Source: an uncultured Desulfobacteraceae bacterium
Lineage (GTDB): Bacteria; Desulfobacterota; Desulfobacteria; Desulfobacterales; JAABSP01
Length of the DNA: 51,377 nucleotides
Reading direction: 5' to 3'
Assembly: GCA_964633575.1 (NCBI GenBank)
Contig: CAZWGY010000002.1
Span: 1-51,377 of the forward strand
The notes under the pieces are model-generated. The model was given only the letters and a program-made list of their open reading frames with translations. It was not told where the DNA came from and did no database searches. Both the position numbers and the translations under genes were made by a program. Positions 7,843-50,376 of this stretch are shown piece after piece (positions within the stretch are counted from its first letter, which is position 1; every line of letters begins with the position of its first letter).

Positions 7843-7878
7843 AAACCCCCAGCATCGAAAGCCGGCTGATACACCGCC

Positions 7879-10892: not shown

Positions 10893-11592
10893 GCTGATCG
10901 ACGTTCACACCTATTACGGCAACATCCAGGCCCTCAAGGGGGTGAGCATCGAGGTCCGGGAAGGGGAGATCATCACCCTCATCGGGGCCAACGGCGCCGG
11001 GAAGACCACCACCCTCATGTCGGTCTGCGGGATCGCCCCGCCCCGAACCGGCGAGATCCGGTTCCTCGGGGAATCCATCGTCGGCATGAGCCCCGACGAG
11101 ATCGTGGCCCGGGGAATCTCCCAGGTTCCCGAGGGCCGGCGGATCTTCCCGTTTCTCACCGTTTCGGAAAACCTCGACATGGGCGCCTTTCTCCGGACCG
11201 ACAAGGCGGAAGTCAGGCGGGACCGGGACTACATCTACGAGCTCTTTCCCATCCTGGCCCAGCGCCGGCACCAGGCCGGCGGGACCCTCTCCGGCGGGGA
11301 ACAGCAGATGCTGGCCATCTCCCGGGCCCTCATGGCCCGGCCCCGGCTTCTCCTCATGGATGAGCCATCCCTCGGCCTGGCCCCCCTGGTGGTCCGGCAG
11401 ATCTTCTCGATCATCGAAAAGATCAACGCCGAAAACAGGACCACCATCTTTTTGGTCGAGCAGAACGCCAACCTGGCCCTCAAGGTCGCCCACCGGGGGT
11501 ATGTCATGGAAAACGGCCGGGTCACCCTGACCGACGAAGCCGCCGACCTCCTGGAAAACGAGGAGGTCAGGCGGGCCTACCTCGGGTTGTGA
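10885..11592 (+). CDS. livF: Branched-chain amino-acid ABC transporter ATP-binding protein LivF
   Basis: ORF track, 235 aa. Walker A GANGAGKTT, signature LSGGEQQML and Walker B LLLMDEPSLGL. It overlaps the end of livG by 8 nt. Confidence 0.92.
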   Translation: MLELIDVHTYYGNIQALKGVSIEVREGEIITLIGANGAGKTTTLMSVCGIAPPRTGEIRFLGESIVGMSPDEIVARGISQVPEGRRIFPFLTVSENLDMGAFLRTDKAEVRRDRDYIYELFPILAQRRHQAGGTLSGGEQQMLAISRALMARPRLLLMDEPSLGLAPLVVRQIFSIIEKINAENRTTIFLVEQNANLALKVAHRGYVMENGRVTLTDEAADLLENEEVRRAYLGL

Positions 11593-11642: not shown

Positions 11643-14222
11643 ATGGAATCACGACGTCAACCGCTTCAGCCCCCCGCCGGCGCCGAGGACCCGTCCGAGA
11701 TTCTTCGCCGGGCCGTGGCCCGCCATCAGAGAGGGGATCTGACGGGAGCCGGTTCCCTCTATCAGCGGGTCCTTGACGCCGACCCGCGCCAGCCCGATGC
11801 CCTCCACCTCTCCGGAGTCCTCGCCTTTCAAACCGGGGATAGGGACGCCGCCATTGACGCCATCCAAGCCGCCATCCAGCGGCGTCCGAACGAGCCGATC
11901 TACCGCAAAAATCTCGGCACCGTGCTCCAGGCGGCCGGGCGGATACCCGAAGCCATCGCGGCCTTTCGGCGGAGCCTCGATCTCAAGCCCGATTTTTTCG
12001 ACGCCGAGATCGGCCTGGCGGGGGCCATGGAGCGGCTTGGCCAGCGGGAAGCGGCCCTCGATGGATATCAGCGGTGCTTGGCGCTGAGGCCGGATGCCCA
12101 CGGGGTCTATTTCCGGATGGCCGCTACCCTCAGAGCCCTGGGACGGATCGACGAGTCCGTTGCCGCCTGCCGGGAGGCGATCCGCCGCCGGCCCGACCAG
12201 CCCCGTTACTCCGAAACCCTGGGAGACCTCCTCGCCGCCCGGGGGGAGACCGACGCCGCCCTGGATGCCTATCGGGAAGCCCTGCGCCGAGGCGGCGACG
12301 CCGCCGGCATCCGGATCAAGATCGGCATCCAGTTGGGGGGCGCCGGGAATCCCCGGGCCGCCCTGACGGCCTTTCAGGAAGCACTCCGTCTGGCGCCCGA
12401 CAACCCGGTCGCCCACCACAACGCCGGAGTGGCCCTCCGGGAGCTGGGCCGATCCCGGGAAGCCGTGGGCAGATTTCAGTCGGCCCTGGCCGGCCGCCCC
12501 GATTATGCCGAAGCCCACAACAACCTGGGCAATGCCTTTCGGGACCTCGGCCGTGATGAAGAAGCCCTTGCCTGTTACACCCGAGCCATCGAGATCCGGC
12601 GGAACTATCCGGATGCCCATAATAACATCGGCAACCTGTTAAAGGACCGGGGCCGGATCTCCCAGGCCATCGCGTCCTATGAGCGGGCGTTGGCGATCCA
12701 GCCCGACTACCCCTTTGCCCTCTACAACCTCGGCAACATCCGGGAGGAGCAGGGCCAACTCGAGACGGCCATCGATTTTTATGAGCGGGCCCTGGCGGTC
12801 CGGCCCGATTTCGGGCTCGCCTTTGCCAGCCTCGTCTATTTGCTCCAGTACGCCTGTGACTGGGACCGGCTGGCCGAACTCGGACCCCGGCTCGATGACC
12901 TCAACGCGGCGGCCCTGGAAAAGGGCCAGCGGACGCCGGAAACTCCCCTGGCCAACCTTTCCCGGAAGATGGACCCGGCGGAAAATTTCCGGATCGCCCG
13001 ATCCTGGGCCGGGGAGATCGAGCGGAACGTCGCGGCCCGGGGCGAAACCTTTGAGCCGCGGCCGGACCGGGCGTTCACCGGCGGCCGGATTCGGGTGGGC
13101 TATCTCTCCAACGATTTCCGGAGCCACCCGGTGGGACAGCTCATGGCCGGACTCTTTGCGGCTCACGACCGAAAGGTCGTCGAGGTGATCGGCTATTCCT
13201 ACGGCCGAAACGACGGGAGCGTCACCCGAGACCGGATTGCCAAAGGGTGCGACCGGTTCGTGGATATCCGGCCCCTGAGTCCCGAAGACGCCGCCCGGAA
13301 AATCCACGATGATGGCGTGGACATCCTCGTCGATCTCATGGGCCACACCCAGAGCAACCGGATGGCCATCTGCGCCCACCGGCCGGCTCCGGTTCAGGTG
13401 AGCTACCTCGGCTTTCCGGGAACCACCGGCGCCGGATTTTTCGACTACGTCCTCACTGACCCGATCCTCACCCCGCCCGAGCAGGCGCCTTGCTACAGCG
13501 AGGCCCTCGCCTACCTTCCCCACTGTTACATGGTCACCGACGACCGCCAGCCCATCTCCCGGCCCTTTCCCCGGCGGGCCGACGAGGGCCTTCCCGACGA
13601 CGCCGTGGTCTTCTGCTCCTTCAATTCGGCTCACAAGATCGAACCGGTGATCTTCGACGCCTGGATGCGGATTCTCCGGGCCGTGCCGGGGAGTGTGCTC
13701 TGGCTGCCCCGACGCCACGACGTGGCGGTCCGGAACTTGAGGCGGGCGGCGGGCCAATGGGGGGTGTCGTCGGAACGGCTGATTTTTGCCGATAAGCTGC
13801 CGGACAAGGCGGACCATATAAGCAGAATCATGCTGGCCGATCTGGCGCTGGATACCCGGATTTACAATGGCCACGCCACCACCGCCGATCTGCTCTGGAT
13901 GGGGGTGCCGGTGATTACGCTGAAAGGGCGCCATTTTGCATCCCGGGTCGCGGCCGGCTTGCTGACGGGCGTCGGGTTGCCCGAACTGGTTGTTGACCGC
14001 CTGGAAGATTATGAAGCCGTGGCCCGATCCCTGGCAACCCATCCGGACCGGCTTCGGCGCATCCGGCAACGATTGGCCAAAAACCGTCTGACCACGCCGC
14101 TGTTTGATTTGCCCCGGTTTGTCCGGGGACTCGAGCGGGCCTATCAGGAGATGGCCCGTCACTATCGTAAGGGACAGGAATGCCGAATGATTCATATTCA
14201 GCCGTCCGGAGGACGGCCATGA
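11643..14222 (+). CDS. TPR-repeat protein with C-terminal GT41 O-GlcNAc-transferase-like domain (eukaryote-type OGT/SEC-like)
   Basis: ORF track, 859 aa. About 400 aa of 34-aa TPR units (A..Y..AL...PD...A..NLG pattern) are followed, from about nt 13085, by a GT41-type catalytic region. That region reads RIRVGYLSNDFRSHPVG, DLMGHTQSNRMAICAHRPAPVQVSYLGFPGTTGAGFFDYVLTD, YNGHATTADLLWMGVPVITLKGRHFASRVAAGLL, ...TTPLFDLPRFVRGLERAYQEMARHY. As I recall it, human OGT has [33 protein letters not shown]...[24 protein letters not shown]. Confidence 0.88.
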   Translation: MESRRQPLQPPAGAEDPSEILRRAVARHQRGDLTGAGSLYQRVLDADPRQPDALHLSGVLAFQTGDRDAAIDAIQAAIQRRPNEPIYRKNLGTVLQAAGRIPEAIAAFRRSLDLKPDFFDAEIGLAGAMERLGQREAALDGYQRCLALRPDAHGVYFRMAATLRALGRIDESVAACREAIRRRPDQPRYSETLGDLLAARGETDAALDAYREALRRGGDAAGIRIKIGIQLGGAGNPRAALTAFQEALRLAPDNPVAHHNAGVALRELGRSREAVGRFQSALAGRPDYAEAHNNLGNAFRDLGRDEEALACYTRAIEIRRNYPDAHNNIGNLLKDRGRISQAIASYERALAIQPDYPFALYNLGNIREEQGQLETAIDFYERALAVRPDFGLAFASLVYLLQYACDWDRLAELGPRLDDLNAAALEKGQRTPETPLANLSRKMDPAENFRIARSWAGEIERNVAARGETFEPRPDRAFTGGRIRVGYLSNDFRSHPVGQLMAGLFAAHDRKVVEVIGYSYGRNDGSVTRDRIAKGCDRFVDIRPLSPEDAARKIHDDGVDILVDLMGHTQSNRMAICAHRPAPVQVSYLGFPGTTGAGFFDYVLTDPILTPPEQAPCYSEALAYLPHCYMVTDDRQPISRPFPRRADEGLPDDAVVFCSFNSAHKIEPVIFDAWMRILRAVPGSVLWLPRRHDVAVRNLRRAAGQWGVSSERLIFADKLPDKADHISRIMLADLALDTRIYNGHATTADLLWMGVPVITLKGRHFASRVAAGLLTGVGLPELVVDRLEDYEAVARSLATHPDRLRRIRQRLAKNRLTTPLFDLPRFVRGLERAYQEMARHYRKGQECRMIHIQPSGGRP

Positions 14223-17200: not shown

Positions 17201-19528
17201 GAGCTGATCTCCGATCCGGAGACGGCTTCCCGGGAGATGGTCGAATTCTGCGGCCTCGAGTGGAACGAGCGGTGCCTTGAGTTTCACCGGCACCAGCGGG
17301 CGGTTCAAACGGCGTCCGTCACCCAGGTCCGACGGCCCATCTATCATTCTTCCGTGGGAAAATGGCGTCACTATGAACGCCATATCGAGCCCCTGAAAGC
17401 GGCCATTGCGGCTGATCCCCTCGGTTTCGACGCGGATGGGGCCATGCGGCGGGCCGTGACCTATCACCAGCAGGGGATGCTTGAATCGGCCGAAGCCCTC
17501 TACCGGAAGGTTCTGGCGGAAGCGCCGGATAACCCGGATGCCAGCCACCTTTTGGGCGTGTTGTCGTTTCAGCGGGGGGAAGCGACCCAGGGGGTCGAGC
17601 TGATCCAGCAAGCGACCCGGATCGATCCGGACAACTGGGCCTATTTCAACAACCTCGGCACCGCGTTGAAAAACGCCGGCCGGGTGGAAGAGGCCATTGA
17701 CGCCTATCTCCGGGCCATCGACCTGAAACCGGATCACCATGAGCCGCACTATAACCTGGGGGTGGCCCTGGCCGACGCCGGCCGGACCGAGGAGGCCATC
17801 GAGCGATACCGTCACGCCACCACCTTGAAACCGGACTATTGCGAAGCCTTCAACAACATGGGCAACGCCCTCAAAAGCATGGGGCGGTTGGACGAGGCCA
17901 TCGATAGCTACCAACGGGCCATCAAGATTAACCCCGACTACGCCAAGGCATACAACAACCTGGGCAGCGCGCTTTCCGGCCGGTTCAAATTCAAGGATGC
18001 GGTGGCCGCTTTCCAGCGGGCCATTGCCTTGAATCCGGAGTACCACGAAGCCTACAATAACCTCGGGGCCGCACTCAAGGACCGGGGGCAATTGAGTGCC
18101 GCCATCCGGAATTACCGGAAGGCCATCGCCCTGAAGCCGGATTATTATGAGGCCCACAACAACCTTGCCAACGCACTCAACAACCAGGGAAAGCTCGAAG
18201 AAGCGGTGACGGCCTACCGTCATGCGCTCGATATCAAGCCGGAATGCCATGAGGCTCATGATAATCTCCTGCTGACCCTCCAATACCTTCCCGATCATGA
18301 CCCCGCCCAGCTCCGGGCGGAGCATGATCACTGGGATGTCCGCCATGCCCGGCATCTGGCCGAAGAGGCGCCGCCCCACGGAAACGACCGGTCACCGGAT
18401 CGGCGGATTCGGGTCGGGTTCGTCTCCCATGATTTCGGCCGGCATCCGGTGGGCTATTTCCTGGTGGCCTACCTCGCGGCCCATGATCCGGATGCGGTCG
18501 AAGTCGTCTGCTATTCCGATCGGGTTCAGGAGGACGACATGACGGAGACCATCCGGTCCCATAGCGCCCTCTGGCGCCGGACGGTGGGTGTGCGGGATGA
18601 GCCGATGGCCGATCAAATCCGGGAGGACGGCATCGATATCCTCGTGGACATGTCCGGCCACACCGCCAAGAATCGGCTGATGGTCTTCGCCCGTCGGCCG
18701 GCGCCGGTTCAGGTGACCTGGCTGGCCTACCCCGGGACCACCGGCATGGCGGCGATGGACTATCTCATCGCGGACCGATGGGTGGCCCCGCCGGGAATGG
18801 ACGACGCCTACGCCGAAAGTCTGCTCCGGCTGCCGGAATCCTATCTCTGCTACGAGCCGCCGGATTACGCGCCGGATGTCAACAGCCTCCCGGCCCTCGA
18901 GAACGGCCATCTCACCTTCGGCTGCTTCAACAACCTGGCCAAGGTCACCCCGGCGGTGATTTCTCTCTGGGGGCGGATCCTTCGGGCTGTACCGGATGCC
19001 CGCCTTCTTCTCAAGTACCGATCCTTCAATGATAAAGCCGTCCAGGACCGGTACCGGGAGCTGCTAGCCGGTGAGGGGATCGCCGAGGACCGGATCGATC
19101 TCATCGGGGCATCAGCCTCTCATGTCACCCACCTCTCCCATTTCAACCGGATTGACGTGGCCCTCGATCCGTTCCCCTATAACGGGACCACCACCACCTG
19201 CGAGACCCTTTACATGGGGGTGCCGGTGATCAGCCTGGCCGGCCAGACCTTTGTCAGCCGTCAGGGGTGCGGTATCCTGGAAAATGTCGGGCTTTCGGAC
19301 TGGATTCCCCGCTCCTATGATGCCTATGTGGAGCGGGCGGTCACCTGCGTTGATCAGCTCGACGCGCTCAATGCCCTGCGCGGGACGCTTCGGCAACGGG
19401 TGGCGGACTCGCCGTTATGCGATGCCGGGCGGTTTGCCCGGCACCTGGAAGCGGGTTTTCGGCAAATCTGGAGACGGTGGTGCGACGGAATGGACCCATG
19501 GGCCGTGACCGTTGAGAGGGACTCGTGA
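14219..19528 (+). CDS. Multidomain enzyme: TPR-sulfotransferase, TPR-sulfotransferase, TPR-GT41 glycosyltransferase
   Basis: ORF track frame 14180..19528. I prefer ATG 14219 because GGAGGA lies 5 nt upstream and it forms an ATGA overlap with the upstream stop at 14220-14222. There are two sulfotransferase modules with the 5'-PSB-type motif [18 protein letters not shown]. The GT41 module starts at about 18401 ([69 protein letters not shown]). Confidence 0.88.
   Translation: [1769 protein letters not shown]
14923..15610 (+). other. Sulfotransferase module 1 (PAPS-dependent, TPR-linked family) inside gene 14219..19528
   Basis: [29 protein letters not shown] ... [38 protein letters not shown] ... 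[16 protein letters not shown]. This matches my recollection of the bacterial family of TPR-containing sulfotransferase proteins. Confidence 0.8.
16700..17393 (+). other. Sulfotransferase module 2 (paralog of module 1) inside gene 14219..19528
   Basis: [29 protein letters not shown] ... [38 protein letters not shown] ... [16 protein letters not shown]. It is collinear with module 1, including the preceding [13 protein letters not shown] segment. Confidence 0.8.
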
Positions 19529-22368
19529 TCCGGACCTCGGAAGCAACAGTTTCGGCGGCCGGCCGGCGGCACCCCGCGCCAGCGGACCCGCGAATCCGGG
19601 AGGCGCTCCAGCTCCGCCGCCGGGGGGAAGGCGAGCGGGCGGTGGCATTGGCCCGGGAGATTCTCCGGGACCGGCCGGAACATCCGGACGCGCTCCATCT
19701 GGTCGGATTGGCGGCTTATGATAAAGGGGACCTCGAGACGGCGGTACGGTGGATCGAGCGGGCCATCGCCGCCGATGATGCCAATCCGGCCTACCACATC
19801 AATCTGGGCAACGCCCGAAAAGCGGCCGGCGATCTTGATGAGGCCGTCAAGAGCTACGAGGCGGCCCTGGCCCGGCGGCCGGACTTTCCCCCGGCCCGAA
19901 AGAACCTGGGCCTGGCCCTGACCGCCATGGGCCGGCACCAGGAAGCCCTGGCCCAGTTTCAGCGGGTCCTCGATGCCCATCCGGATGACCTGGAGGCCGC
20001 CGCCCATATCGTCCTTCCCCTCCGGGCCCTGGATCAACGGGATGCGGCCATCGAACATTGCCGACGGGCATTGGCGCGGCATCCTGAAAACGTCGGTCTC
20101 CTGAGCAACCTCGGTAACCTGCTCCGGGAAGTCGGTCGGCCGGACGAGGCCGAATCCTTCTACCGACGGGCCATCGAGCTCCAGCCGGCCCATCCCGGGA
20201 TCTGGAACAACCTGGGAAACGCGCTCGGGGACCTGAAACGGCCGGCCGAAGCCCTCGACGCCTATCGGCGGGCCACCGACCTCAAACCGGCGTACCATGA
20301 AGCCTGGATCAGCATGGGAGTCGTCCAGATGGCCATGGAACAGCCGGAGGCCGCGGCCGACAGCTTCCGTCGGGCCACTGAGATTCGGCCCGATTTCGCG
20401 GTCGCCCATCGAGGGCTTGGCGATGCCCTGGGAAAACGCTGGCTGCTCTCGGATGCCGCGGACAGCTACCGCCGGGCACTCGATCTGGACCCCAACGCCG
20501 AAACCCTCAACAACCTGGGCAATGTCTTAAAAGACGGGGGAGAGGTCGAGGAGGCCCTGAATTGCTACCGAAAGGCCCTGGCGCTTCAGCCCGATTACGT
20601 CGTGGCTCACGACAATATCCTCATGACGCTCCATTACGTGGCCGACGGGGACTTCCAATCCATCGCCGAGGCCCACGCCCGATGGGATGACCGGCATGGC
20701 CGCCCGCTGACCGAAGCGGCATCCCGGCCCTCACGGGACGGCGATACCGACCGGCAACTCGCCGTCGGGGTGGTCTCCAAAGATTTCGGCCTCCACCCGG
20801 TGGGATACATTCTGGCCCCCTGGCTGGAGGCCCATGATCGGGACCGGCTCCGGATCGTCTGCTACTCGGACCGGACCCGGGAGGACCGGATGACCCGCCG
20901 GCTCCGGGAGTACGCTGACGCCTGGCGGGATACCGCCGAGATGGACGACGAGGCCCTGGCCCGCCGAATCCGCGAGGACCGGATCGACGTCCTCATGGAC
21001 CTATCCGGCCACACGGCGGGAAACCGGCTCCTGGTTTTCGCCCGGACCCCGGCTCCGGTCCAGGTGACTTGGGCGGCCTATCCCGACACATCCGGGCTCG
21101 ACGCCATGGATTACCTCCTCTGCGACGGCCGGGCCGTCCCCGAGGAAACCCGGCAGTGGTTTTCCGAGATCCCGTGGCGGCTGCCGTCGAGCTATCTCTG
21201 CTATGCCCCGCCCGAGGCCGCCCCCTCGCCTTCGCCATTGCCGGCGGCGGAGGCCGGTCACCTCACCTTCGGAAGCTTCAACAATCTGGCCAAGATCACT
21301 CCGGCGGTGATCCGGCTCTGGGCGGAGATCCTCCGGCGCCGACCCGACGCTCGGATGATGCTCAAGTACCGGGCCTTCGAGGACCCGGAAACCCGGCGGC
21401 GGTACGCCGAGTGGTTTAGCGCCGAGGGGATCGGGGCCGACCGATTTGAATTGCTGGGCAGCTCCCCATCCCACCCCGAGCATCTGGCCGCTTACCAACG
21501 GGTGGACGTGGCTCTAGACCCGTTTCCCTACAACGGGACCACGACCACTTTAGAAGCGATCTACATGGGCGTGCCGGTTATCAGCCTGGCGGGGGAGTCC
21601 TTTATCTCCCGGCAGGGGTGCTCGATGTTGACGGCCCTCGGGATGGCGGACTGGATCGCCGACTCGACCGAGGCCTATGTGACGCGGGCCGTTGAGGCGG
21701 GGCGGGATCTGGATGCCCTGGCGGCGGTGAGACGGGGGCTCCGGGAACGGCTCCTCGGTTCCCCCCTCTGTGATGGGCCGGGGTTTGCCCGAGAGATGGA
21801 GACCGCATTGCGGTCGATCTGGAAAGCGGGGAAAAGCGGTCGGGCTTCCGATCCGGTGACTGATGCCGGACCGGATAGCCAACTGCTCCTGATCAGCCGA
21901 CGGGACGGTTCCGTTGACGATCTCCCCCCGCCGTTTGCCGGATGGAACGGGCGGATTCGGCGGGTGGCCGGGGCCGGGCCGGCAACCGAGGACTTGCTGG
22001 CCGGGATTCCGCCGGCGTCGATGGATGGGCTCTACTGCCCCGGCGAGCTGGTCCGGTGGGAAACCCACGCGGTGGCCAGGGTGCTGTCCGCCTTCGGCCG
22101 GGTCATTCGCCCTGGCGGTGCCCTGGTGGTCGAGGTGCCCGATCTCCAATGGGCGGGAGCGGCCATTGCCAACGGAACGAATGTCAAAACGGCTCTGAAG
22201 ATGGTTTACGGCCCATCCGACGGGAAAGGTGGTTATCGAACCGGATTCACATCCAGCCGTCTGCGCGGCCTGCTGGACGAGGCGGGCTTTCGGGACATTG
22301 AGCTGATCGGGATGGAAGGGCGGTTGCGGGCGGTTGCCCGTAACGGCGCCGAACGGGAGGACCGATGA
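19525..22368 (+). CDS. TPR - GT41 glycosyltransferase - degenerate methyltransferase-like C-terminal domain
   Basis: ORF track, 947 aa. GTG 19525 forms a GTGA overlap with the upstream stop. The TPR array is followed by a GT41 module from about 20752 ([66 protein letters not shown]). The tail from about 21875 aligns by eye with the methyltransferase module of gene 28607..32986 ([16 protein letters not shown]) but lacks the VLHVGCG motif I. Confidence 0.85.
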   Translation: [947 protein letters not shown]

Positions 22369-25300
22369 CCTCGCCTTCTCCATCGAGCGAATCACTCACA
22401 CCGGCCGCCGCGTTTCGCCGGGCCGCCGCCCTCAGAGCCCAGGGGGATCTCCCCCACGCGGCCGAGGTCTGCCGACGGATTCTGGATCGGGACCCGGACC
22501 ATGCCGACGCGCTTCATCTCCTCGGGGTCATCGACTTTCAGGCCGGACGACTCACCGAGGCCGTCCGGCGGATTGGCCGGGCCATTCGTCTCCGGCCGAA
22601 GCGTTCCGATTTCTACAGCAACCTGGGCAATGTCCTGAAAAAGCGGGGGAGGCTGAAGGCATCGCTGGCGGCCTTCAAGCGGGCCAAGACCCTCAACCCC
22701 GAATCGCCGGACATCCTGAATAATATGGGGGTGACCCTCTATGAGCTCGGCCGGCTGGACGAGGCCATTGCCGCTTACGAGGCGGCGATCTCGCTGCGTC
22801 CCGACTACGCCGAGGCCTACAACAACCTCTGCGTCCCCCTGAAGGACAAGGGGCGGCACGGGGCGGTCCTGTCCTGCTGCCGAAAGGCGGTGGAGTTGTC
22901 TCCCCGGAACGCCGGGGCCCACAGCAACCTTGGCAACGCTCTGAGCAACCTCGGGCGGATTTCCGAGGCCGTGTCGGCCTACGAGCGGGCGATCGACCTG
23001 AATCCCCGATTCGCCGGCGCGTACAATAATCTGGGCAATGCCCTGAAGGACCGGGGGCGGGTCGATGAGGCCATTGACGCCTACCGGCGGGCCCTTTCGG
23101 TGAACCCCGATGACCGCAACGCCCACGACAACCTTATCTTGACCATGCACTACAGCCCCAACGAGTCGGCGGGGACCCTGCGGGCGGAGCGGCAACGGTG
23201 GAACGCCCGGTTTGCCGAGCCACACCGGGCGGGCATCCGGCCCCACCAAAACGACCGGCGGCCGGATCGGCGGCTCCGGATCGGCTTCGTGTCCAGCGAC
23301 TTCGGCCGGCATCCCGTGGGCTATTTTCTGGCCCCTTATCTGGCCTGCCACCGTCGCGAGGCGGTCGAGGTGATCTGCTACTCGGACCGGAAACAGGACG
23401 ATTCCCTGACCGTTCAGCTCCGGCGGATGGCCGATGGATGGCGCCAGACCGTGGGGTTGAGTGATGATCGGCTGGCCCGGGCCATCCGGGAGGACCGGAT
23501 CGACATCCTGGTGGATCTTTCCGGGCACACCGCGGGAAATCGTCTCCTCACGTTCGCCCGAAAGCCGGCCCCCGTCCAGGCCGTCTGGATCGCCTATCCG
23601 GACACCACCGGGATGGCGGTCATGGATTACCTGATCACCGACGGTCGGGTGACGCCACCGGGAGCGGAAAAAGACTTCTCCGAGCGGTTGGCCCGGCTGC
23701 CCGAGACCTACGTCTGCTACGCGCCGCCGGACCGGGCTCCGGCGGTCACTCCGCTGCCCGCGCTGGACGCCGGAGGGATCACCTTCGGGTGTCTCAACAA
23801 CATCGCCAAGATGACCCCGGAGATGGTCTCGATCTGGTCCCGGATTCTCCGCCGGGTGCCGGAGAGCCGTCTCATCCTGAAGTACAAGTCCTTCGGGGAC
23901 GACTCGGTCCGTCAACGCTACCGCCGCCTCTTTGCCGACGCGGGAATCGATCCGGCTCGGGTGGTCATGCGGGGGTTTTCCCCCACCCACCGCGAGCACC
24001 TGGAGACCTACCAGGAGATCGATATCGCCCTTGATCCGTTTCCCTACAACGGCACCACCTCCACCTGTGAGGCCCTCTACATGGGGGTTCCCGTGGTGGG
24101 ATCGGCCGGGACGACCTTTGTGGGCCGGCAGGGGGTAAGTTTGCTCCATACCGTTGGGTTGTCCGACTGGATCGCCGGAGATGAGGAAGGATATGTCGGG
24201 ATGGCGGTCCGCCGGGCTGGTGACCTCGAAGCCCTGGCCGCACTCCGGCGGTCCCTCCGGGAGCGGATGCGCCAATCGCCCCTCTGCAATGCCGCCCGGT
24301 TTTCCCGGTTTCTGGAAACGGCCTTCCGCCGGATGTGGGGACAATACCTGGGACGGACCGATCCCAACCGTCTGATCAAAGCCGCGGTGACCGCCCACCG
24401 GAGCGGCGATCCCGACCGGGCCGAGCGGCTCTATCGGCGAATTCTCGAGACAACGCCCGACCATCCGGACGCCCTCCACCTCCTGGGCGTCGTCTGCTGC
24501 CAGTCAGACCGCCTGGAGGAGGGCGCCGAGCTCATCGAGCGGGCCATCGCCGTCCAGCCGAATCAGGCGGCGTTCCACTCCAGCCTGGGCAATGCCCGGA
24601 AAGGGCTGGGGCAGCTCAATGCGGCCCGGGCCGGCTACGAGCGGGCCATCGCCCTTAATCCGGACTTCTCCGAAGGGCATTACAACCTGGCCAACCTCTT
24701 AAAAGCCGACGGCCGGATGGACGAGGCCATCGACCATTTCCGGGCCGCGTTGAAGATCAATCCCGACTCGGTTGCCGTCTGGAACAACCTGGCCAATGCG
24801 CTTCGGGAAAAGGGGGAGATGGCCGAGGCGATCCGCTGCTACCGGGAGGCGGTCCACCGGAAGCCGGATTACGCGGAGGCCCTGGCCAACCTCGGCTCCG
24901 CGCTCAAGACGAACGGCGAGGTGGAGGCGGCCGAAAGGTGCCTCCGGGATGCCCTGACCCGCCTTCCGGAGGTTCCCCGCCTCCACCACCACCTGGGGAA
25001 TCTCCTCCGGGAGCGGGGGGACCTCGACGGCGCGGCCGGCCATCTCGAAAAGGCCCTCTCGCTGGCCCCCGATGACAGCCTCATCCACTCCGGACTGGGC
25101 TTTCTCCGGTCGGATCAGGGACGGCGGGATGAGTCCCTGGCCGCTTTTCGGCGGGCGGTCGAGCTCAAACCGGACGATCACGCGGCCCACATGAACCTGG
25201 GCAACGCCCTGATGGAGCGCCGATCCGCCGGCGAGGCCATGGCCTGCTTTAATCAGGCCCTGGACCTCAAGCCCCATTCCCATGAAACCCTGACCAACCG

Positions 25301-26675
25301 GGGCAACCTCTTCAAGGAGCTTGGGGAGGCCGAAAAGGCGGTGGACAGCTACCAGCAGGCCCTGGCTCTGAATCCCGAATTCCGTGCCGCGTTTGAAAAC
25401 CAGCTTCTGGCCATGCACTGCCTGCCGGACCTTTCCCCCGAGGCGATCCGCCGGGCCCATGACGAGTGGAACTCGCGGTTCGCGGCTCCCCTGGCTGATC
25501 CGGCGGCCCAGCACGACAACGATCCGAGCCCCGACCGGCGCCTCCGGGTGGGGATCGTCTCCATGGACTTCGGTCAACATCCGGTCGGGTATATTCTCCT
25601 GCCCTTTTTCGAGGCCCATGATCCCGAGGCCATCTCCCTGTTCTGCTATACGGACCGCCGGCGGGAAGACCCGGTGACCGGTCGGCTCAAAGCCCGCGCC
25701 GCCGCCTGGCGCCCCATTGCCGGCCTGTCGGATCGGAGGGTGGCCGAGATGGTCCGGTCGGACCGGATCGATATCCTGGTGGACATGTCCGGCCACACCG
25801 CCGGCAACCGGCTTCTGGTTTTCGCCCGGAAGCCGGCCCCCATTGAGGTGAGCTGGGCCGCCTATCCCGACACCACCGGAATGACGGCGGTGGATTACAT
25901 CATTGCCGACCGGTGGGTGATTCCCGACGGCGCGGAGGCGGGATTCGCCGAGACCCCCCGCCGGCTGCCGGTGAGCTACCTCTGCTGGGAGCCGCCGGCC
26001 CATGCGCCCCCCGTCGGGCCGTTGCCGGCTCTGGAACGGGGATATCTCACCTTCGGCTGCACCAACAATCTGGCCAAGGTCACGAAAACGGTGATCGCCC
26101 TCTGGGCGGAGATTCTGAAGGCGGTGCCCGACGCCCACCTGTTGATGAAAAACCGGTATCTGGAAGACCCGGAAGTCGCGGACCGGTTCCGGAGCCGGTT
26201 TGTCGATGCCGGGGTCGATCCGGACCGGATTGAGCTGATGGGATATACCCCGAATCACACGGCTCACCTGTCGGCTTACGGACGGATCGACGTGGGGCTC
26301 GACCCTTTTCCCTACAATGGCACCACCACCACCTGCGAAACCCTGTATATGGGGGTTCCGGTGATCAGTCTGGCCGGGCGGACCTTCGTGGCCCGGCAGG
26401 GGGTCAGTATCCTCAACACCGTCGGTCTCCCCGACTGGGTGGCGGCATCGGAGTCGGACTACGTGGAGCGGGCGGTGGCCAGCGGGGCGGACCTCGATGC
26501 ATTGGCAAAGCTGCGGGCCGGATTGCGGGACCGGATGGCCACGTCGCCCCTCTGTAACGGCCCCCGGTTCGCCCGGGATATCGAGCGGGCGTTTCGAGAG
26601 ATGTGGCGCCGGTGGTGCGCCTCCCAGACAACGGAAAGGCAAGGCCATGGCGAAAAAACGTCGGCGGAAAGCTAA
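22365..26675 (+). CDS. Double-module enzyme: TPR-GT41-TPR-GT41
   Basis: ORF track, 1436 aa. There is an ATGA overlap with the upstream stop. GT41 module 1 spans about 23269-24355 ([17 protein letters not shown] ... [19 protein letters not shown]). GT41 module 2 runs from about 25537 to the end ([17 protein letters not shown] ... [19 protein letters not shown]). Each module is preceded by its own TPR array. Confidence 0.88.
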   Translation: [1436 protein letters not shown]

Positions 26676-32986: not shown

Positions 32987-35274
32987 CGGCAACGGACACG
33001 AAAGCGGTGCTCCGGCGGGCCATCGCCGACCATCAGGCCGGGCGGGCCGACCGGGCCGAAAGCGGTTACCGGGAGGTCCTGGCGGCCGACCCGGACCAGC
33101 CCGATGCCCGCCATCTCATCGGCGTTTTGGCCTACCAGCGAGGGGAGCTGGACCAGGCCATGGCGGAGATCACCCGGGCCATCGAATTGGATCCAAATCG
33201 GGCCGTCTTTCACGGCAACCTGGGCAACGTCTATCGGGACCGGGGGGAGCCCCGGCGGGCCGTGGAGACCTTCCGCCGGGCTCTCCGGCTGAAACCCGAC
33301 TTCGCCGACGCCCTCTCCAACCTGGGCAACACCTGGATCGACCTGAAACAGACCGGGCGCGCCCTCTCCGCCTACCGCCAAGCCCTGAAACGGGAGCCGG
33401 AACGCCCGGAAGCCCGGTTCGGCATGGCCAATGTCTTCAAGCACCAGGGCCGGGCAAAGGAGGCGGCCGATGCCTTTGCAAAGGCTCTGGCGGCCCGGCC
33501 GGACAGCGTCCGGATGCACGACAACCACCTCCTCGCCCTCCACTACCTCCCCGGCATCACCCCGACGGCCCTGCGCGAGGCCCACGACGCCTGGTACCGC
33601 CGGCACGGGGCGCCGCTGACCCGTCAGGCCCGGACTCCGGAAACCGATCCCGACCCCGACCGGCCCATCCGGCTGGGGCTGGTCTCCCGGGACTTCGGCC
33701 GTCACCCGGTGGGCTTTTTCCTGACCCCCTTTGTGGCGGCCCGGGACCGGGGTGAGCTGACCCTCTGCTGCTACGCCGACCGCCGGGCCGAGGGCGAAAT
33801 GACCCGATGGTTCCGGGACCGGGTGGACCTCTGGCGGACGGTGGTCGGGATGGATGACGAGGCACTGGCCCGGCGGATTCGCGAGGACCGGATCGATATC
33901 CTGGCGGACCTCTCCGGCCACACCGCCGGAAACCGCCTGGGGGTCTTCGCCCGGAAGCCGGCCCCCATTCAGGTGGCCTGGATCGCCTACCCGGACACCA
34001 CCGGCCTGCCCGCCGTGGATTATATCGTCTGCGACCGCCAGGTCCTGCCCGAAGGTGATGAGCCGTGGTATGTGGAGCGGCCGCTCCGGCTGCCCGACGG
34101 CTACCTCTGCTATGGCCCTCCGGCGACGGCCCCGCCGGTTTCGCCCCCGCCGGCGGTCCGGCGAGGGTTTGTAACCTTCGGCTGTTTCAACAACACCGCC
34201 AAGGTGAGCCGGGAGGTGGTGGAGTGCTGGGCCGCGATTCTCCGGGCCGTGCCCGGCTCCCGCCTGGCCCTCCGGAGCATCCCCCTTGACGACCGCTATA
34301 TCCGGCGGCTATACCGGCGGCTGTTCGCCGACAACGGGGTGACCCCGGACCGGGTGGATATGGACGGCACGGTCTCCCATTACGACTACCTGGCCGGCTA
34401 CGGCGGGATCGACATCGCCCTCGACCCCTTCCCCTTTCCCGGCGGGCTGACCACCTGCGAGGCCCTCTACATGGGGGTCCCGGTGGTGAGCCTGGCCGGG
34501 GAGACATTCGTGAGCCGGCAGGGGCGCTCCATCCTCTCGGCCGCCGGGCTCGGCGACTGGGTGGCCGCCACGGAATCAGATTACCAGCACCTGGCCATCT
34601 CCCGGGCCAACCGGATCGACGATCTGGCCCGGCTCCGGGCCGGGCTTCGGGATCAAATCCTCGCTTCGCCCCTTTGCGACGGGCCCCGGTACGCCCGGGC
34701 GGTGACGACGGCCTTCCGGCGGATCTGGCGGGAGCATTGCGAAACGATGGCGGCCCCGAGCCGACTCCGCCTTGGCGGCGGGCTGGAGATTCCCGACGGC
34801 GAAGGCCCGGAACCAGAAGGCGATGGGCCAATCCGGTGGATGCCGGACGGGGACGCCCCGGCCATCTTGGACCTCTCGGGGGTAAGGTCGGACTCGGTGG
34901 CCGAGATCCGGTCGGTCCTCTGCCTGGCCCGGCTTCTCCCCGGCGACCACGACCGGGCCCTGGCCGAATCCATCCGGGTCCTGGCGCCGGGCGGCCGGGC
35001 GGTCTTTTTTGTTCCGGACCTGGCCGCCATCGCCGCTCATCTCAGAGGGGACGGCCCCGTCCGCCCACTCTTTCGGGACGGTGACGGCTCGGTGACCCCC
35101 ATGGACCTTTTATTCGGGCGGAGCCCGTCCCATCCGCCCATCCGCACTGGAATGACCGGGGACCGGATCGTTCAAATCCTCCGGAAAGCCGGGCTCGAAC
35201 GGGTCCGGGGCGGTCGAATCCGGAGCCGGTATCTTCTATGGGCGGTCGGCCACAAGCCCCAACAAAGGGGTTGA
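32983..35274 (+). CDS. TPR - GT41 glycosyltransferase - degenerate methyltransferase-like C-terminal domain
   Basis: ORF track frame 32962..35274. I prefer ATG 32983, which forms an ATGA overlap with the upstream stop at 32984-32986. The GT41 module starts at about 33664 (IRLGLVSRDFGRHPVG, DLSGHTAGNRLGVFARKPAPIQVAWIAYPDTTG, FPFPGGLTTCEALYMGVPV). The tail from about 34760 has RVLAPGGRAVFFVPDL but carries LRLGGGLE in place of motif I. Confidence 0.85.
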   Translation: MTATDTKAVLRRAIADHQAGRADRAESGYREVLAADPDQPDARHLIGVLAYQRGELDQAMAEITRAIELDPNRAVFHGNLGNVYRDRGEPRRAVETFRRALRLKPDFADALSNLGNTWIDLKQTGRALSAYRQALKREPERPEARFGMANVFKHQGRAKEAADAFAKALAARPDSVRMHDNHLLALHYLPGITPTALREAHDAWYRRHGAPLTRQARTPETDPDPDRPIRLGLVSRDFGRHPVGFFLTPFVAARDRGELTLCCYADRRAEGEMTRWFRDRVDLWRTVVGMDDEALARRIREDRIDILADLSGHTAGNRLGVFARKPAPIQVAWIAYPDTTGLPAVDYIVCDRQVLPEGDEPWYVERPLRLPDGYLCYGPPATAPPVSPPPAVRRGFVTFGCFNNTAKVSREVVECWAAILRAVPGSRLALRSIPLDDRYIRRLYRRLFADNGVTPDRVDMDGTVSHYDYLAGYGGIDIALDPFPFPGGLTTCEALYMGVPVVSLAGETFVSRQGRSILSAAGLGDWVAATESDYQHLAISRANRIDDLARLRAGLRDQILASPLCDGPRYARAVTTAFRRIWREHCETMAAPSRLRLGGGLEIPDGEGPEPEGDGPIRWMPDGDAPAILDLSGVRSDSVAEIRSVLCLARLLPGDHDRALAESIRVLAPGGRAVFFVPDLAAIAAHLRGDGPVRPLFRDGDGSVTPMDLLFGRSPSHPPIRTGMTGDRIVQILRKAGLERVRGGRIRSRYLLWAVGHKPQQRG

Positions 35275-35299
35275 CAAGGGAAGCAAACCGGTGATAAAT
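35271..35299 (+). promoter_or_regulatory. Candidate sigma70-type promoter for the TolC-like / giant-adhesin unit
   Basis: A perfect TTGACA (35271-35276, overlapping the upstream stop) is followed by a 16-17-nt spacer and then GATAAAT (35293-35299). It marks the start of a 273-bp AT-rich gap. Sequence match only. Confidence 0.35.
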
Positions 35300-35367
35300 G
35301 AAGCTCAGATCCATGTAGTGGCATTTTCACGCATGTTTAAAGTTTTTAAAGGGGCTTAAAAAAAATT

Positions 35368-35384
35368 GATAAACAGGGTTTATC
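35368..35384. promoter_or_regulatory. Palindrome GATAAAC-AGG-GTTTATC (candidate operator)
   Basis: Perfect 7-bp inverted repeat with a 3-nt spacer, in the AT-rich region upstream of the TolC-like gene. Confidence 0.3.
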
Positions 35385-35547
35385 GACAACGAGACGAGGC
35401 GCCATGGCGTGGTTGCCGGAAAATGCTTTAATTGACTGATATGATTTGGCGCATAGAGGCATATCGCCACGAGGTGAATAGCATTCAGCGGCTAATGGAA
35501 TGGATATTGCATAAATCAGCCTCAACTTCGACGTATGCACATCCAAT

Positions 35548-37101
35548 ATGAGGGGTGGGGGCGGATATGACGTGTATAACCGGATTTTCATTCTGATGAC
35601 GGCGACGGTAATCAGCCTGATGATCGGGAGCGGGTGTACCACCCGTTATACCGTTGACCTGGCGGCGGATCGTGAGATCAACGCGGCCGATGACCTGGAA
35701 CTCCTCAAGCCCCAGGAGTCGGTGACCGTGCCCGAGCCGTTGACCCTGGAAGCGGCCGTTCGGTTCAGCTTCGAGCACAACCTCGAAATGCGGATCAACC
35801 GGATCATGGCCCGGATCGATGACGACAAGGCCCTGGCCAAGAACCTCGAAATGCTTCCCGATTTCACCTTGCAGGCGGCGATAGAGGACAAAAGCGATTA
35901 CCTCCGGGCCTCGATCTCCGAGGAGCGCACTCAGAAGACCGCCGACCTCACCCTTGCCTGGAACCTCCTCGATTTCGGGATTTCCTATATTCGGGCCCGG
36001 CAGGCCGCGCTTCAGAACGAAGTCCGGCGGATGGAGCGGCTCCGACAGGCCCAGACCCTCGCGCTCGACATCGCCGGCACCTTTTTTAAGGCGGCCATGG
36101 CCGAGCGGGATCTCGAACGGGTCCGAACCGTCGAGGAGCAGATGCGCCGCTACCTCGAGAAGGCCTCCGAGATGGTCGCCCAGAACCGCCTCGACCCCAT
36201 CGTGGCCAAGGACATCGAAAAGAAGCTCACCGAGATGGCCATCACCGTCGGAACCCTCCAGGCCGATCTTTCCGGAGCCAAATACGAGCTTGCCAAGCTG
36301 ATGGGCCTGCCCGCCGGGACCGACCTCGTTCTGGCCGACGGCCGGGCCGAAAACTGGATCGAAGATCTCCCCGAGCTGGACGCCCTCGACCCGATGGCCC
36401 TCGAACGGATCTCCCTCCACAACCGCCCGGAGTTCTTTGCCGCCGATCTCAACAGCCGGATTCAGCATGACGAGGCCCGTGCCGCACTTGTCCAGATGTT
36501 CCCGAGCATCCGGTTCGACCTGGCCGGCCATTACAACGGCAACGATTCCTATGTCACCAACGAATGGGCCACCGTCGGCGCCGGGCTCATGTACAATTTC
36601 CTGGCCCTGCCCGCCCGGTACATGGAATGGAACGCCCAGGTGAAGGCCGAAACCAAGGTCCGGCTCGAACGGCTGCTCCTCACCGGGAGCGTCATCGCCC
36701 AGACCCACCTGGCCCTTCATGAATACACCGTTAAAACCCGTCATTTCAAACTCAATGACGAGGCATTCCGGGTTTCCGCGGAGCTGCTCGACATGACCGC
36801 CGAGCGCCACGCCCTCGGAACCCTGTCCGATACGGAGATAACCGAGCGGATGCAGGAGCATATCGTCACCACGCTCAAGCGGAACCAGAGCCTGATCGAC
36901 CTGATCCATGCCTACCACACGCTCCTGGTCACCCTCGGACTCGATTATTATCGGTGGGAGACGCCCCTGGCCGATCAGGACCCGGACGCGGCTCCCATGG
37001 ACATCGGCACCCGGAATATCATGGTGCCGGACGGCGTTGTCATCCGGCCCGCTCAAACAGAGCCCGCGGCACCGCTCCCGGCGGCGGCCGCCGCACGGTA
37101 G
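35548..37101 (+). CDS. TolC-like outer-membrane efflux/secretion factor (OEP family), possible lipoprotein
   Basis: ORF track, 517 aa. The N-terminal hydrophobic segment ends in IGSGC (weak lipobox). LTLEAAVRFSFEHNLEMR is a typical OEP opening. Two long alpha-helical/coiled repeats carry L..A...L..A patterns. The start is uncertain (ATG 35548, GTG 35572 or ATG 35596). Confidence 0.8.
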   Translation: MRGGGGYDVYNRIFILMTATVISLMIGSGCTTRYTVDLAADREINAADDLELLKPQESVTVPEPLTLEAAVRFSFEHNLEMRINRIMARIDDDKALAKNLEMLPDFTLQAAIEDKSDYLRASISEERTQKTADLTLAWNLLDFGISYIRARQAALQNEVRRMERLRQAQTLALDIAGTFFKAAMAERDLERVRTVEEQMRRYLEKASEMVAQNRLDPIVAKDIEKKLTEMAITVGTLQADLSGAKYELAKLMGLPAGTDLVLADGRAENWIEDLPELDALDPMALERISLHNRPEFFAADLNSRIQHDEARAALVQMFPSIRFDLAGHYNGNDSYVTNEWATVGAGLMYNFLALPARYMEWNAQVKAETKVRLERLLLTGSVIAQTHLALHEYTVKTRHFKLNDEAFRVSAELLDMTAERHALGTLSDTEITERMQEHIVTTLKRNQSLIDLIHAYHTLLVTLGLDYYRWETPLADQDPDAAPMDIGTRNIMVPDGVVIRPAQTEPAAPLPAAAAAR

Positions 37102-37184
37102 AACCGGACGAAAAACAGGGGGGAGTCATGTAACTCTTAAAAAGGTGAACGGCGGGATTCACGACCGAAACGAAAAGGAAGCGT

Positions 37185-37190
37185 TATAAT
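37185..37190 (+). promoter_or_regulatory. Perfect TATAAT -10 box 80 nt upstream of the giant gene (no good -35)
   Basis: TATAAT at 37185-37190 lies in the AT-rich 169-bp gap. The best -35-like hexamer, TTCACG, is 21 nt away, which is too far. AAGGAGG (37258-37264) precedes ATG 37271. Confidence 0.25.
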
Positions 37191-37270
37191 CAATTGGATA
37201 TTCAATTTTATGAGATTTAGACAATATTTCCGGTTTCAATGTATTTCAGGACCTAATAAGGAGGCGACCC

Positions 37271-50341: not shown

Positions 50342-50376
50342 CAGGGGCACGCCGTCGGGTGTGCCCCTGCTTTTTG
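50342..50376 (+). terminator. Rho-independent terminator of the giant gene
   Basis: CAGGGGCAC (50342-50350) pairs perfectly with GTGCCCCTG (50361-50369) across a 10-nt loop. C + TTTTT (50370-50375) follows, 40 nt after the stop codon. Confidence 0.85.

Follow-up and report, generated by a model that had tools for sequence, protein, structure and literature searches.

A nine-module glycosyltransferase array upstream of a TolC-family gene and a giant adhesin-like gene

The window analyzed here is a complete 51,377-bp contig (CAZWGY010000002.1) of a metagenome-assembled genome (MAG) from an uncultured Desulfobacteraceae bacterium, and its central feature is an array of seven plus-strand genes, A1 to A7, encoding glycosyltransferases of family GT41 fused to tetratricopeptide repeats (TPRs). 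The array begins 50 bases past the end of livF, runs for 23.6 kb in operon-like fashion with no intergenic gaps (the start of A3 overlaps the stop of A2 by 4 nt), and is followed by a TolC-family gene and a gene for an adhesin-like protein of 4343 aa, hereafter the giant (Table 1). Two separable modules therefore lie side by side, the array at 11643-35274 and a type-I-secretion-style locus from 35548 to the contig end. The first-pass annotation, which had proposed that the array enzymes modify the giant, had also placed the end of the array at 35274, a 273-bp AT-rich gap behind it, and the TolC-family and giant genes on the same strand, and each of these was found exactly there.

All seven array proteins matched TPR families (E 1e-25 to 1e-109) and PF13844 Glyco_transf_41 (132-369 bits against a cut-off of 25), and a domain scan counted nine TPR-linked GT41 modules in total, alongside two sulfotransferase domains and a single clear methyltransferase domain. 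No signal peptide or transmembrane-like segment was detected in any of them, and by homology they would be soluble cytoplasmic enzymes with a predicted activity on proteins. The C-terminal tails of A3 and A7 (~175 aa; 21835-22365 and 34732-35271) have no Pfam match; they weakly resemble the A6 methyltransferase domain (18 and 37 bits, respectively) and may be degenerate methyltransferase domains.

The GC content of the array is about 62-70% per gene, and its codon usage was indistinguishable from that of core genes (relative synonymous codon usage, RSCU, r 0.97), a fit that led us to reject recent horizontal acquisition from a compositionally foreign donor. In an exact-sequence look-up, A1, A4 and the giant were singletons at 90% identity. 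The A1 catalytic domain as query retrieved more than 6000 relatives, none above 56% identity; the query's own cluster was not among them, so this search alone cannot exclude close orthologues.

Table 1. Features of the window with their domain limits and supporting matches
Feature	Position	Strand	Domains and evidence
Conserved flank: CHASE2 Ser/Thr kinase (partial), NAD kinase, five-gene liv-type ABC transporter	3654..11592		Pfam and blastn; right edge is the synteny breakpoint (11592)
A1: TPR and OGT-type GT41	11643..14222	+	GT41 aa 396-855 (nt 12828-14207); PF13844 E 1.9e-98
A2: TPR, sulfotransferase, TPR, sulfotransferase, TPR, SPINDLY-type GT41	14180..19528	+	Sulfotransferases aa 242-481 (nt 14903-15622) and aa 836-1075 (nt 16685-17404), PF13469 E 6e-96; GT41 aa 1385-1779 (nt 18332-19516), PF13844 E 6e-54
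A3: TPR, SPINDLY-type GT41, ~170-aa C-terminal tail	19525..22368	+	GT41 aa 408-776 (nt 20746-21852)
A4: TPR, GT41, TPR, GT41, both SPINDLY-type	22365..26675	+	GT41 aa 294-670 (nt 23244-24374) and aa 1049-1423 (nt 25509-26633); PF13844 E 3.5e-106, 4 stretches
A5: TPR and SPINDLY-type GT41	26497..28617	+	GT41 aa 336-702 (nt 27502-28602)
A6: TPR, GT41, methyltransferase, TPR, GT41	28529..32986	+	GT41 aa 258-623; S-adenosylmethionine (SAM) methyltransferase aa 611-795 (nt 30359-30913); divergent GT41 A6b aa 1117-1482; PF13844 E 3e-110, PF08241 E 2e-11
A7: TPR, SPINDLY-type GT41, tail	32962..35274	+	GT41 aa 234-594 (nt 33661-34743)
AT-rich intergenic region, array to TolC gene	35275..35547		273 bp, 42.9% GC
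TolC-family outer-membrane factor	35548..37101	+	PF02321 OEP E 3.6e-23
AT-rich intergenic region before the giant gene	37102..37270		169 bp, 40.8% GC; AAGGAGG ribosome-binding site
Giant adhesin-like protein, 4343 aa	37271..50302	+	DUF4347 aa 78-246 (nt 37502-38008); 33 repeats aa 350-4013 (nt 38318-49309); cadherin domain aa 4063-4139 (nt 49457-49687)
Intrinsic-terminator-like hairpin and T-run, 3' of the giant gene	50342..50376	+	12-bp stem, 9 G-C pairs, then CTTTTT; strong hairpin proper at 50342-50369
SapC-family gene, 5' part, runs off contig end	50972..51377	+	PF07277 E 3.4e-42

The array modules are related to OGT and SPINDLY

A1 is OGT-like, with Drosophila OGT (E 1e-93) and human OGT (E 2e-89) as its best solved relatives, and carries equivalents of OGT H498, H558, K842, H901, H920 and D925. 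The other eight modules are SPINDLY-like; module A4a matched Arabidopsis SPY (7y4i) at E 5e-107 and T. terrenum OGT (5djs) at 2e-91. Seven of these eight are 50-58% identical among themselves, and A6b is more divergent (41-45%). All nine modules keep equivalents of H498 and K842, and eight keep that of H901; the nucleotide-binding motif NG[HT]TT...D/E is likewise intact in eight. The degenerate module is A7, whose active site has Tyr in place of the H901 equivalent and PGGLTT at the position of NG[HT]TT. The HMW1C-like chains 3q3e, 8j30 and 8p0o matched at only E 1e-12 to 1e-6 and over part of the C-terminal lobe. On these matches the modules are classed as OGT/SPINDLY-type enzymes and fall outside the HMW1C-like N-glycosyltransferases.

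Directly upstream of the GT41 modules lie N[LMI][GA] motifs at a spacing of 34 aa (for example at A2 1158-1328 and A1 294-362), with six of them immediately before the A2 module, which is the signature of an asparagine ladder. OGT grips extended peptides through such a ladder. SPY likewise holds extended peptides with it (PMC9715652).

The sulfotransferase domains matched PF13469 at 321 bits (cut-off 27), and the two copies in A2 are 60% identical to each other. Their closest solved relatives are protein-tyrosine sulfotransferases, at a weak match (E 1e-9 to 1e-8), and the GMPRSGTTL of the domain aligns with GMPRSGTTL of the protein-tyrosine sulfotransferase 8w5z (E 1.5e-9), a GxPRSGTT-type N-terminal motif that we take to be the site binding 3'-phosphoadenosine-5'-phosphosulfate. 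The first-pass annotation had cast sulfation and methylation as terminal decorations. Domains for both are present; because the sulfotransferases most resemble enzymes acting on protein tyrosine, however, they may modify the protein directly rather than cap a glycan. The A6 methyltransferase domain is 56% identical (E 2e-57) to a free-standing methyltransferase encoded on plasmid b of Cereibacter sphaeroides, and its identity to methyltransferases from type I secretion loci in five further genera is 45-58%.

The TolC-family gene and the giant protein

The gap between the array and the TolC gene holds an imperfect inverted repeat, TTGATAAACAGGGTTTATCGACAA. A simple consensus scan, which is uninformative in this region, found no promoter or terminator in the gap, and blastn found no counterpart of it in L001, the closest relative. 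The gap is probably a separate regulatory region.

The TolC-family protein matched PF02321 at 82.8 bits (cut-off 22) over two stretches and has a lipoprotein-like N-terminus (..LMIGSGC). Its homologues in Desulfobacteraceae and Desulfococcaceae MAGs are 40-52% identical and are annotated as TolC family, and a scan of genome contigs with the window's protein returned no relative. A TolC gene directly upstream of a DUF4347 giant was found in seven other loci (L001, L002, L005/L012, L011, L095, L096 and L097), and because this order recurs, we regard the TolC-adhesin pair as a conserved two-gene cassette. Four of the seven also have the same upstream neighbors (RecJ, DUF4911, a radical-SAM gene, BFN, an epimerase and a hydrolase). 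A tighter DUF4347 alignment scan gave only four loci. The C-terminus of the giant is incomplete in every locus other than the window, and L011 is masked with N.

The giant consists of a disordered acidic N-terminus, a DUF4347 domain, the repeats, a cadherin domain and an acidic C-terminal tail. It contains 758 acidic against 80 basic residues and two Cys. Its description in the first-pass annotation stood up well: a self-built hidden Markov model (HMM) found exactly the 33 repeats that had been counted, each of ~110 aa; the computed composition (T 15.6, D 12.4, G 10.8, V 10.0, A 8.7, S 7.2%) agrees with the reported dominance of T, D, G, V and S; and the Sec signal peptide said to be lacking is indeed absent, with no hydrophobic N-terminus or transmembrane-like segment detected in the protein. 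The repeats, which had been named Calx-beta, are Calx-beta-like: a three-repeat fragment matched PF03160 (E 1e-5) at a score just under the Pfam threshold (25.8 bits against 27). The homologous giant in L002 carries precomputed Calx-beta matches.

We considered the Thr/Asp-rich composition as a glycosylation signal and rejected it, because DUF4347 giants from loci that have no array show the same Thr/Asp/Gly/Val-rich composition (T 9-17%). This richness is a feature of the class and no evidence of glycosylation.

The DUF4347 domain was predicted with high confidence (pLDDT 80-97) to adopt a flavodoxin/Rossmann-like alpha/beta fold. Its only specific structural match was chain G of the Pseudomonas aeruginosa Hcp3-Tce1 type VI secretion complex (9qpe; E 3.5e-5; TM 0.57), and a type VI effector candidate, PA0256, has been described as a DUF4347 protein (PMC8262886). 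The family alignment has an invariant Cys182 and a nearly invariant His135, and a clan-CD-like Cys/His peptidase was entertained; the flavodoxin/Rossmann-like model and the lack of any peptidase-like match left this idea unsupported.

The same enzyme families recur beside type I secretion genes on plasmids

The HMM probes first applied to metagenome loci (see below) were blind to ABC transporters, HlyD and repeat proteins of other kinds, and most of the metagenome contigs were short; annotated plasmid and chromid records were therefore examined. A search of such records with the SPINDLY-like module A4a returned 118 records, from which 12 independent contexts were inspected, and a search with the A6 methyltransferase domain returned 47 records at 45-58% identity, from which seven genera were inspected.

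On plasmid b of Cereibacter sphaeroides 2.4.1, a stretch of ~17 kb encodes a GT41 enzyme, a peptidase-domain ABC transporter, HlyD, a methyltransferase and two PF13469 sulfotransferases, together with a six-domain Calx-beta protein with RTX repeats and a 1561-aa ALTTAQ-repeat protein. The accessions are WP_011836188 for the GT41 enzyme, WP_011836185 for the methyltransferase, WP_011836190 for the Calx-beta/RTX protein and WP_011836189 for the ALTTAQ protein. Plasmid pL11-A of Pseudoroseomonas carries an OGT-like GT41 gene, HlyD and ABC genes, three ALTTAQ proteins and a methyltransferase, and pCC1524 of Pseudomonas asturiensis carries type I secretion ABC, HlyD and TolC genes, an OGT-like GT41 gene, three ALTTAQ proteins and a methyltransferase, so that GT41, methyltransferase and type I secretion genes occur all together in these three genera. 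Type I secretion ABC/HlyD genes lay within 14 kb of the methyltransferase in five of the seven genera (Cereibacter, Aureimonas, Pseudoroseomonas, Pseudomonas asturiensis and Bradyrhizobium). The Aureimonas plasmid pAU20a has the ABC/HlyD pair and two SapC genes, and Bradyrhizobium has ABC/HlyD and an RTX protein, both with no GT41 gene. The methyltransferase context of Azospirillum TSH58 includes an RTX protein and a serralysin-type protease, leaving Vitreoscilla as the only one of the seven inspected genera with neither an ABC/HlyD pair nor RTX/serralysin-type proteins.

Plasmid pAB510f of Azospirillum sp. B510 carries four GT41-bearing genes, one of them OGT-like (44% identical to A1) and SPY-like ones among the others, along with a GDP-fucose synthase and a TPR-methyltransferase that differs from the A6 methyltransferase clade. 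Beside this cluster lie genes for a peptidase-domain ABC transporter and HlyD and for a Thr-rich calcium-binding protein of 2751 aa. At 13274-16284 of this locus (L098), the GDP-L-fucose synthase gene lies directly upstream of a SPINDLY-like TPR-GT41 gene, an adjacency that fits O-fucosyltransferase activity of the bacterial SPY-like clade. GT41 genes also adjoin ALTTAQ giants on two Rhizobium plasmids (2303 and 1687 aa) and in metagenome locus L094, lie beside FHA-type adhesin fragments in Methylosinus, and follow flagellin, fliD and fliT in a flagellin island of Burkholderia glumae, where the enzyme is SPY-like and 37-42% identical to the window modules. The GT41 enzymes whose genes neighbor type I secretion genes, ALTTAQ genes or both all had A1 as their best match in the window, at 37-44% identity.

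ALTTAQ proteins (PF20080) are 250-2300 aa long, Ala/Thr/Ser-rich and, where checked, free of Cys. They were found repeatedly beside OGT-like GT41 genes (L101, Cereibacter; L111, Pseudoroseomonas; L114, Pseudomonas asturiensis; L105/L108, Rhizobium; and L094). In three genera the neighborhood further includes an ABC/HlyD pair for type I secretion and a methyltransferase, all of a single clade. Two copies carry wrong annotations, "ICE nucleation protein" and "heme utilization protein". A literature search found no paper on ALTTAQ repeats and none relevant on GT41 enzymes with type I secretion.

Among the sulfotransferase contexts, the conjugative IncFIB plasmid pENTE01 of Enterobacter sp. 638 (L116, 8684-14897) has genes for a TPR-sulfotransferase, a GT8 glycosyltransferase and an autotransporter in a row, which looks like another adhesin-modification operon. 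Its TPR-sulfotransferase is 46% identical to the window's sulfotransferase domain, and the same enzyme is encoded on Lelliottia and Kluyvera plasmids. The two other sulfotransferase plasmid contexts inspected held nothing comparable. Since the same enzyme families recur near genes for exported proteins, an enzyme beside its secreted substrate is a real, recurrent pattern, and the window fits it.

A proposed model for decoration before export

The likeliest single explanation of the locus, with about an even chance of being right in our judgment, is that the array decorates an unfolded, type-I-secreted repeat protein in the cytoplasm, the adjacent giant being the prime candidate substrate. Under this model, the TPR domains would catch extended Thr/Ser-rich stretches of the repeat protein while it is still unfolded. 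The GT41 modules would then attach O-linked sugars, which might differ between modules, with a GlcNAc type added by A1 and fucose or another sugar by the SPY-like modules. The methyltransferase and sulfotransferase domains would further modify these sugars, or else the protein directly, and the decorated chain would leave through a type I system and the TolC-like channel. We infer the enzyme activities, donor sugars, acceptor, type I secretion of the giant and order of events from sequence.

Coupling between array and giant is favored by the plasmid clusters described above, by the intact key residues of the array enzymes, by the giant itself, which is signal-peptide-less, acidic and nearly Cys-free, by the conserved order of TolC and giant genes, and by the SapC-family gene downstream. 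The SapC family takes its name from the first gene of sapCDEF, a type I secretion operon of Campylobacter fetus. This context points to type I secretion of the giant, and because a SapC gene lies there, the ABC and membrane-fusion genes of such a system may lie just past the contig end.

Evidence against coupling, and alternative explanations

The case against coupling the array to the giant draws on the locus itself, its closest relative and other loci. No type I secretion ABC or HlyD gene lies on the contig, which ends 1 kb past the giant. The giant has zero GGxGxD motifs and no HemolysinCabind match, that is, no RTX nonapeptides, so we do not file it as an RTX protein. It is also the codon-usage outlier of the window, with a third-position GC content of 0.68 against 0.76-0.89 elsewhere and an RSCU r of 0.75 against core genes; its correlation with the array (r 0.77), together with the 273-bp AT-rich gap, speaks against a co-inherited unit, and the TolC and giant genes each have an AT-rich upstream region of their own.

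The closest relative, L001 (ENA ERZ1757541 contig_1964), is 91.6% identical to the window over 7945 nt (blastn). Homology spans the kinase gene through livF and breaks off exactly at the livF stop codon, and the flank proteins are 85-99% identical to those of the window. Beyond this point the whole array is absent from L001, with 2.1 kb of unrelated sequence in place of the window's 23.6 kb, and a diverged TolC-adhesin cassette follows, its TolC only 49% identical. This comparison marks the array as an insertion or deletion at a variable site, with a diverged allele of the cassette next to it. At 11694-12369 of L001, the DUF4347 N-terminus of the adhesin is split across three frames and is followed by separate cadherin-like open reading frames, reflecting either a decaying gene or an assembly error in the repeats.

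Co-occurrence in the narrow sense, of TPR-GT41 arrays with DUF4347/Calx-beta giants, had been put forward with the first-pass annotation as a check, and it failed in both directions. No GT41, sulfotransferase or methyltransferase gene was found near DUF4347 giants in any of the eight loci with readable flanks (match limit in the flank scan of the TolC-giant loci, E<1e-3), and neither a Hyphomicrobiaceae locus nor a giant on a Dolichospermum plasmid has one. Conversely, 82 GT41-anchored loci, 80 of them from the metagenome scan, were probed with HMMs for the window's TolC subfamily, DUF4347, the window repeat and the flagellin N-terminus (with no ABC, HlyD, RTX or ALTTAQ models), and none gave a hit, on contigs that were mostly short and with probes that were narrow. 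Tandem GT41 arrays recur among these metagenome loci, with five genes in L091, four in L092, three modules each in L093, L031, L023 and L016, and a large TPR-glycosyltransferase island in L008/L014, so the nine-module fused array is unusual and not unique. Those in L091, L092, L093, L016 and L008/L014 are flanked by unrelated housekeeping genes.

The plasmid records carry adverse evidence as well. Six of the 12 GT41 contexts inspected (Nostoc, Ralstonia, Ruegeria, Haematospirillum, Methylocystis and A. argentinense) had no secreted-protein neighbor, and in the best comparators the substrates would be ALTTAQ or RTX proteins, not DUF4347 giants. The narrow probes alone pointed to no support for the proposed pairing; with the annotated plasmid contexts added, it is partly supported. 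What survives of the proposed enzyme-substrate pairing is the recurrence of the enzyme set with type I secretion genes and repeat proteins; the specific link to a DUF4347 giant was not seen in the other loci examined.

These observations feed most directly into an explanation by coincidence, in which the array is an independent island at a variable spot after livF, its substrate is encoded elsewhere (flagellin, pilin, an ALTTAQ-type repeat protein or an S-layer protein) and the TolC-adhesin cassette is unmodified. The breakpoint at the livF stop in so close a relative, the occurrence of the cassette with no GT41 genes in every other locus examined, the housekeeping surroundings of other tandem arrays and the distinct upstream regions and codon usage would all follow, and the known or inferred substrates of homologues include pilin and flagellin. 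On the other side, at least five unrelated genera have the enzyme set together with type I secretion genes and repeat proteins, which makes a chance landing beside a type-I-style locus less likely, and a scan of the 51-kb contig found no flagellin, pilin or ALTTAQ gene. On balance we consider coincidence somewhat unlikely. The coupling that we prefer would in any case be accessory and not obligatory, since the array is an insertion or deletion relative to L001 and the TolC-adhesin cassette is widespread without it.

In a second alternative, the array, or at least its methyltransferase and sulfotransferase domains, would act on a glycan instead of a protein, in an exopolysaccharide or glycoconjugate pathway that uses a type-I-like ABC/HlyD pair and a small calcium-binding protein, as exemplified by the galactoglucan cluster of Sinorhizobium meliloti with ExpD1/ExpD2/ExpE1. 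Several of the methyltransferase contexts do also hold polysaccharide pyruvyl transferases, GT2/GT4 enzymes, rfb genes, and GH99-like and SEL1-like proteins. To our knowledge, however, every characterized GT41 enzyme (OGT, SPY, HMW1C and also cyanobacterial Ogt) glycosylates proteins, every module of the array is fused to TPRs with the peptide-binding asparagine-ladder motif, the sulfotransferase domains are nearest to enzymes that act on proteins, and a Pfam scan of the window proteins found no polysaccharide polymerase, flippase or sugar-nucleotide synthesis gene, all of which makes a glycan target improbable. Equally hard to credit is regulatory, OGT/SPY-like O-glycosylation of many cytoplasmic proteins, unrelated to secretion and possibly in cross-talk with the FHA/PP2C/CHASE2 kinase genes 6-10 kb upstream, for although the similarity to OGT and SPY is strong and the array enzymes are predicted to be cytoplasmic, nine catalytic modules combined with domains for sulfation and methylation look more like equipment for elaborate decoration than like a switch, L001 keeps the kinase module where it lacks the array, and the homologues cluster with genes for surface and secreted proteins, not regulators.

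Comparison with known systems

The HMW1C/HMW1 system of Haemophilus influenzae (also ApHMW1C and EtpC/EtpA) is similar in that a large adhesin is modified at numerous positions by a cytoplasmic GT41 enzyme ahead of its export and the genes are linked. HMW1C has an all-alpha domain in place of TPRs and N-glucosylates Asn in NX(S/T), and the system uses two-partner (type Vb) secretion via Sec. It had been offered as the precedent for the array and makes a poor one, as an N-glycosyltransferase with no TPRs whose structures the window modules match at only E about 1e-12, far short of the 1e-89 to 1e-107 reached with OGT and SPY. Unlike HMW1C, the array brings together nine modules and further carries domains for sulfation and methylation, and it does not show the hmw1ABC-like linkage to an orthologous substrate gene in other genomes. 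Other glycosylation before export includes the autotransporter heptosyltransferases, the Gtf enzymes of serine-rich repeat proteins, and Maf with flagellin.

Eukaryotic OGT and plant SPINDLY share with the array modules the TPR superhelix and GT-B domain, the conserved His and Lys, and the asparagine ladder (PMC9715652). These O-GlcNAc and O-fucose enzymes are single-module regulators with many nucleocytoplasmic targets, whereas the window has nine modules in seven tandem genes, and no O-GlcNAcase partner of the OGT kind was seen in it. Closer in logic, the ogt gene of Synechococcus elongatus adjoins pilA, an experimentally supported case of a cytoplasmic TPR-GT41 enzyme with an exported pilin as substrate (PMC9306852). 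The cyanobacterial Ogt/OgtA-PilA systems (S. elongatus, Nostoc punctiforme) differ from the window in having a single enzyme, a small pilin and a GlcNAc donor, and no type I secretion. In Caulobacter, FlmG binds flagellin through its TPR N-terminal domain and glycosylates this substrate with its C-terminal GT-B domain while it is still in the cytoplasm, ahead of export (PMC7591256). Flagellin islands such as those of FlmG and Burkholderia export their substrate through the flagellar type III system, unlike the window, which has no flagellar genes.

The giant resembles adhesins of the LapA, SiiE and MpIBP type in lacking a signal peptide, in being very acidic and nearly Cys-free, and in its tandem beta-sandwich repeats; the adjacent TolC-family gene and downstream SapC-family gene are likewise shared with these loci and with C. 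fetus sapCDEF. Unlike LapA-type adhesins, it has no RTX nonapeptides or recognizable LapA-type retention module and its N-terminal domain is DUF4347, and the ABC and membrane-fusion genes typical of type I adhesin loci are not on the window contig. We know of no adhesin of the LapA, SiiE or MpIBP type that is glycosylated, and a literature search found none.

The nearest comparators are the clusters of Cereibacter, Pseudoroseomonas cervicalis pL11-A, Pseudomonas asturiensis pCC1524 and Azospirillum B510, which have an OGT-like GT41 nearest to A1 (37-44%), type I secretion genes and Thr/Ser-rich, Cys-free repeat proteins, one of them with Calx-beta and RTX repeats; in the first three the methyltransferase is about 52-58% identical to the A6 domain. 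They differ in having one to four GT41 genes and free-standing methyltransferases and sulfotransferases where the window has a nine-module fused array, in repeat proteins that are mostly ALTTAQ/RTX, and in their ABC and HlyD genes, which were not seen on the window contig. Set against the known systems acting before export, the new elements of the proposed system would be the type I route, the multi-module OGT/SPY-type GT41 proteins and the fused sulfotransferase and methyltransferase domains.

Other features of the window

The left part of the window carries, on the minus strand, an unknown gene and genes for an FHA protein, a PP2C phosphatase, a CHASE2 Ser/Thr kinase and an NAD kinase, followed on the plus strand by the five-gene liv-type ABC transporter. 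The FHA protein, PP2C phosphatase and CHASE2-sensor kinase genes are grouped at 1242-5410, and the kinase is 85-95% conserved in L001; because it is kept where the array is absent, this signaling module is independent of the array. At the other end, a hairpin-rich spacer of about 600 bp separates the giant-gene terminator from the SapC gene. A GGGAATTTATTCCC-like palindrome occurs in three copies in the spacer at 50400-50870 (about 50417-50440, 50628-50648 and 50801-50820), and one spacer palindrome matched the Rfam model of the small RNA Acido-Lenti-1 above the gathering score (50602-50647, minus strand; 40.2 bits).

Implications

More broadly, we tentatively propose, at a little less than an even chance, that TPR-GT41 enzymes, this clade of SAM methyltransferases and the sulfotransferases resembling protein-tyrosine sulfotransferases (TPST) make up an undescribed maturation system for type I substrates. 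Unfolded Thr/Ser-rich proteins (ALTTAQ, Calx-beta/RTX and the DUF4347 giant) would be O-glycosylated, methylated and possibly sulfated before export, and the nine-module array would be an extreme fused version of this system in which the TPR-GT modules write a composite glycan code on one adhesin. Cytoplasmic glycosylation before export is established for two-partner adhesins, autotransporters, serine-rich repeat proteins, flagellins and pilins but not for type I substrates, and giant type I adhesins are usually treated as unmodified. Plasmid b of Cereibacter sphaeroides 2.4.1 offers a minimal version in a cultured, genetically tractable organism, where the idea can be tested. If correct, it would assign a function to the abundant and unexplained bacterial homologues of OGT and SPINDLY and to the TPR-sulfotransferases, and would add a layer of sugar, methyl and perhaps sulfate groups to proteins of biofilms and cell surfaces that form a very widespread class.

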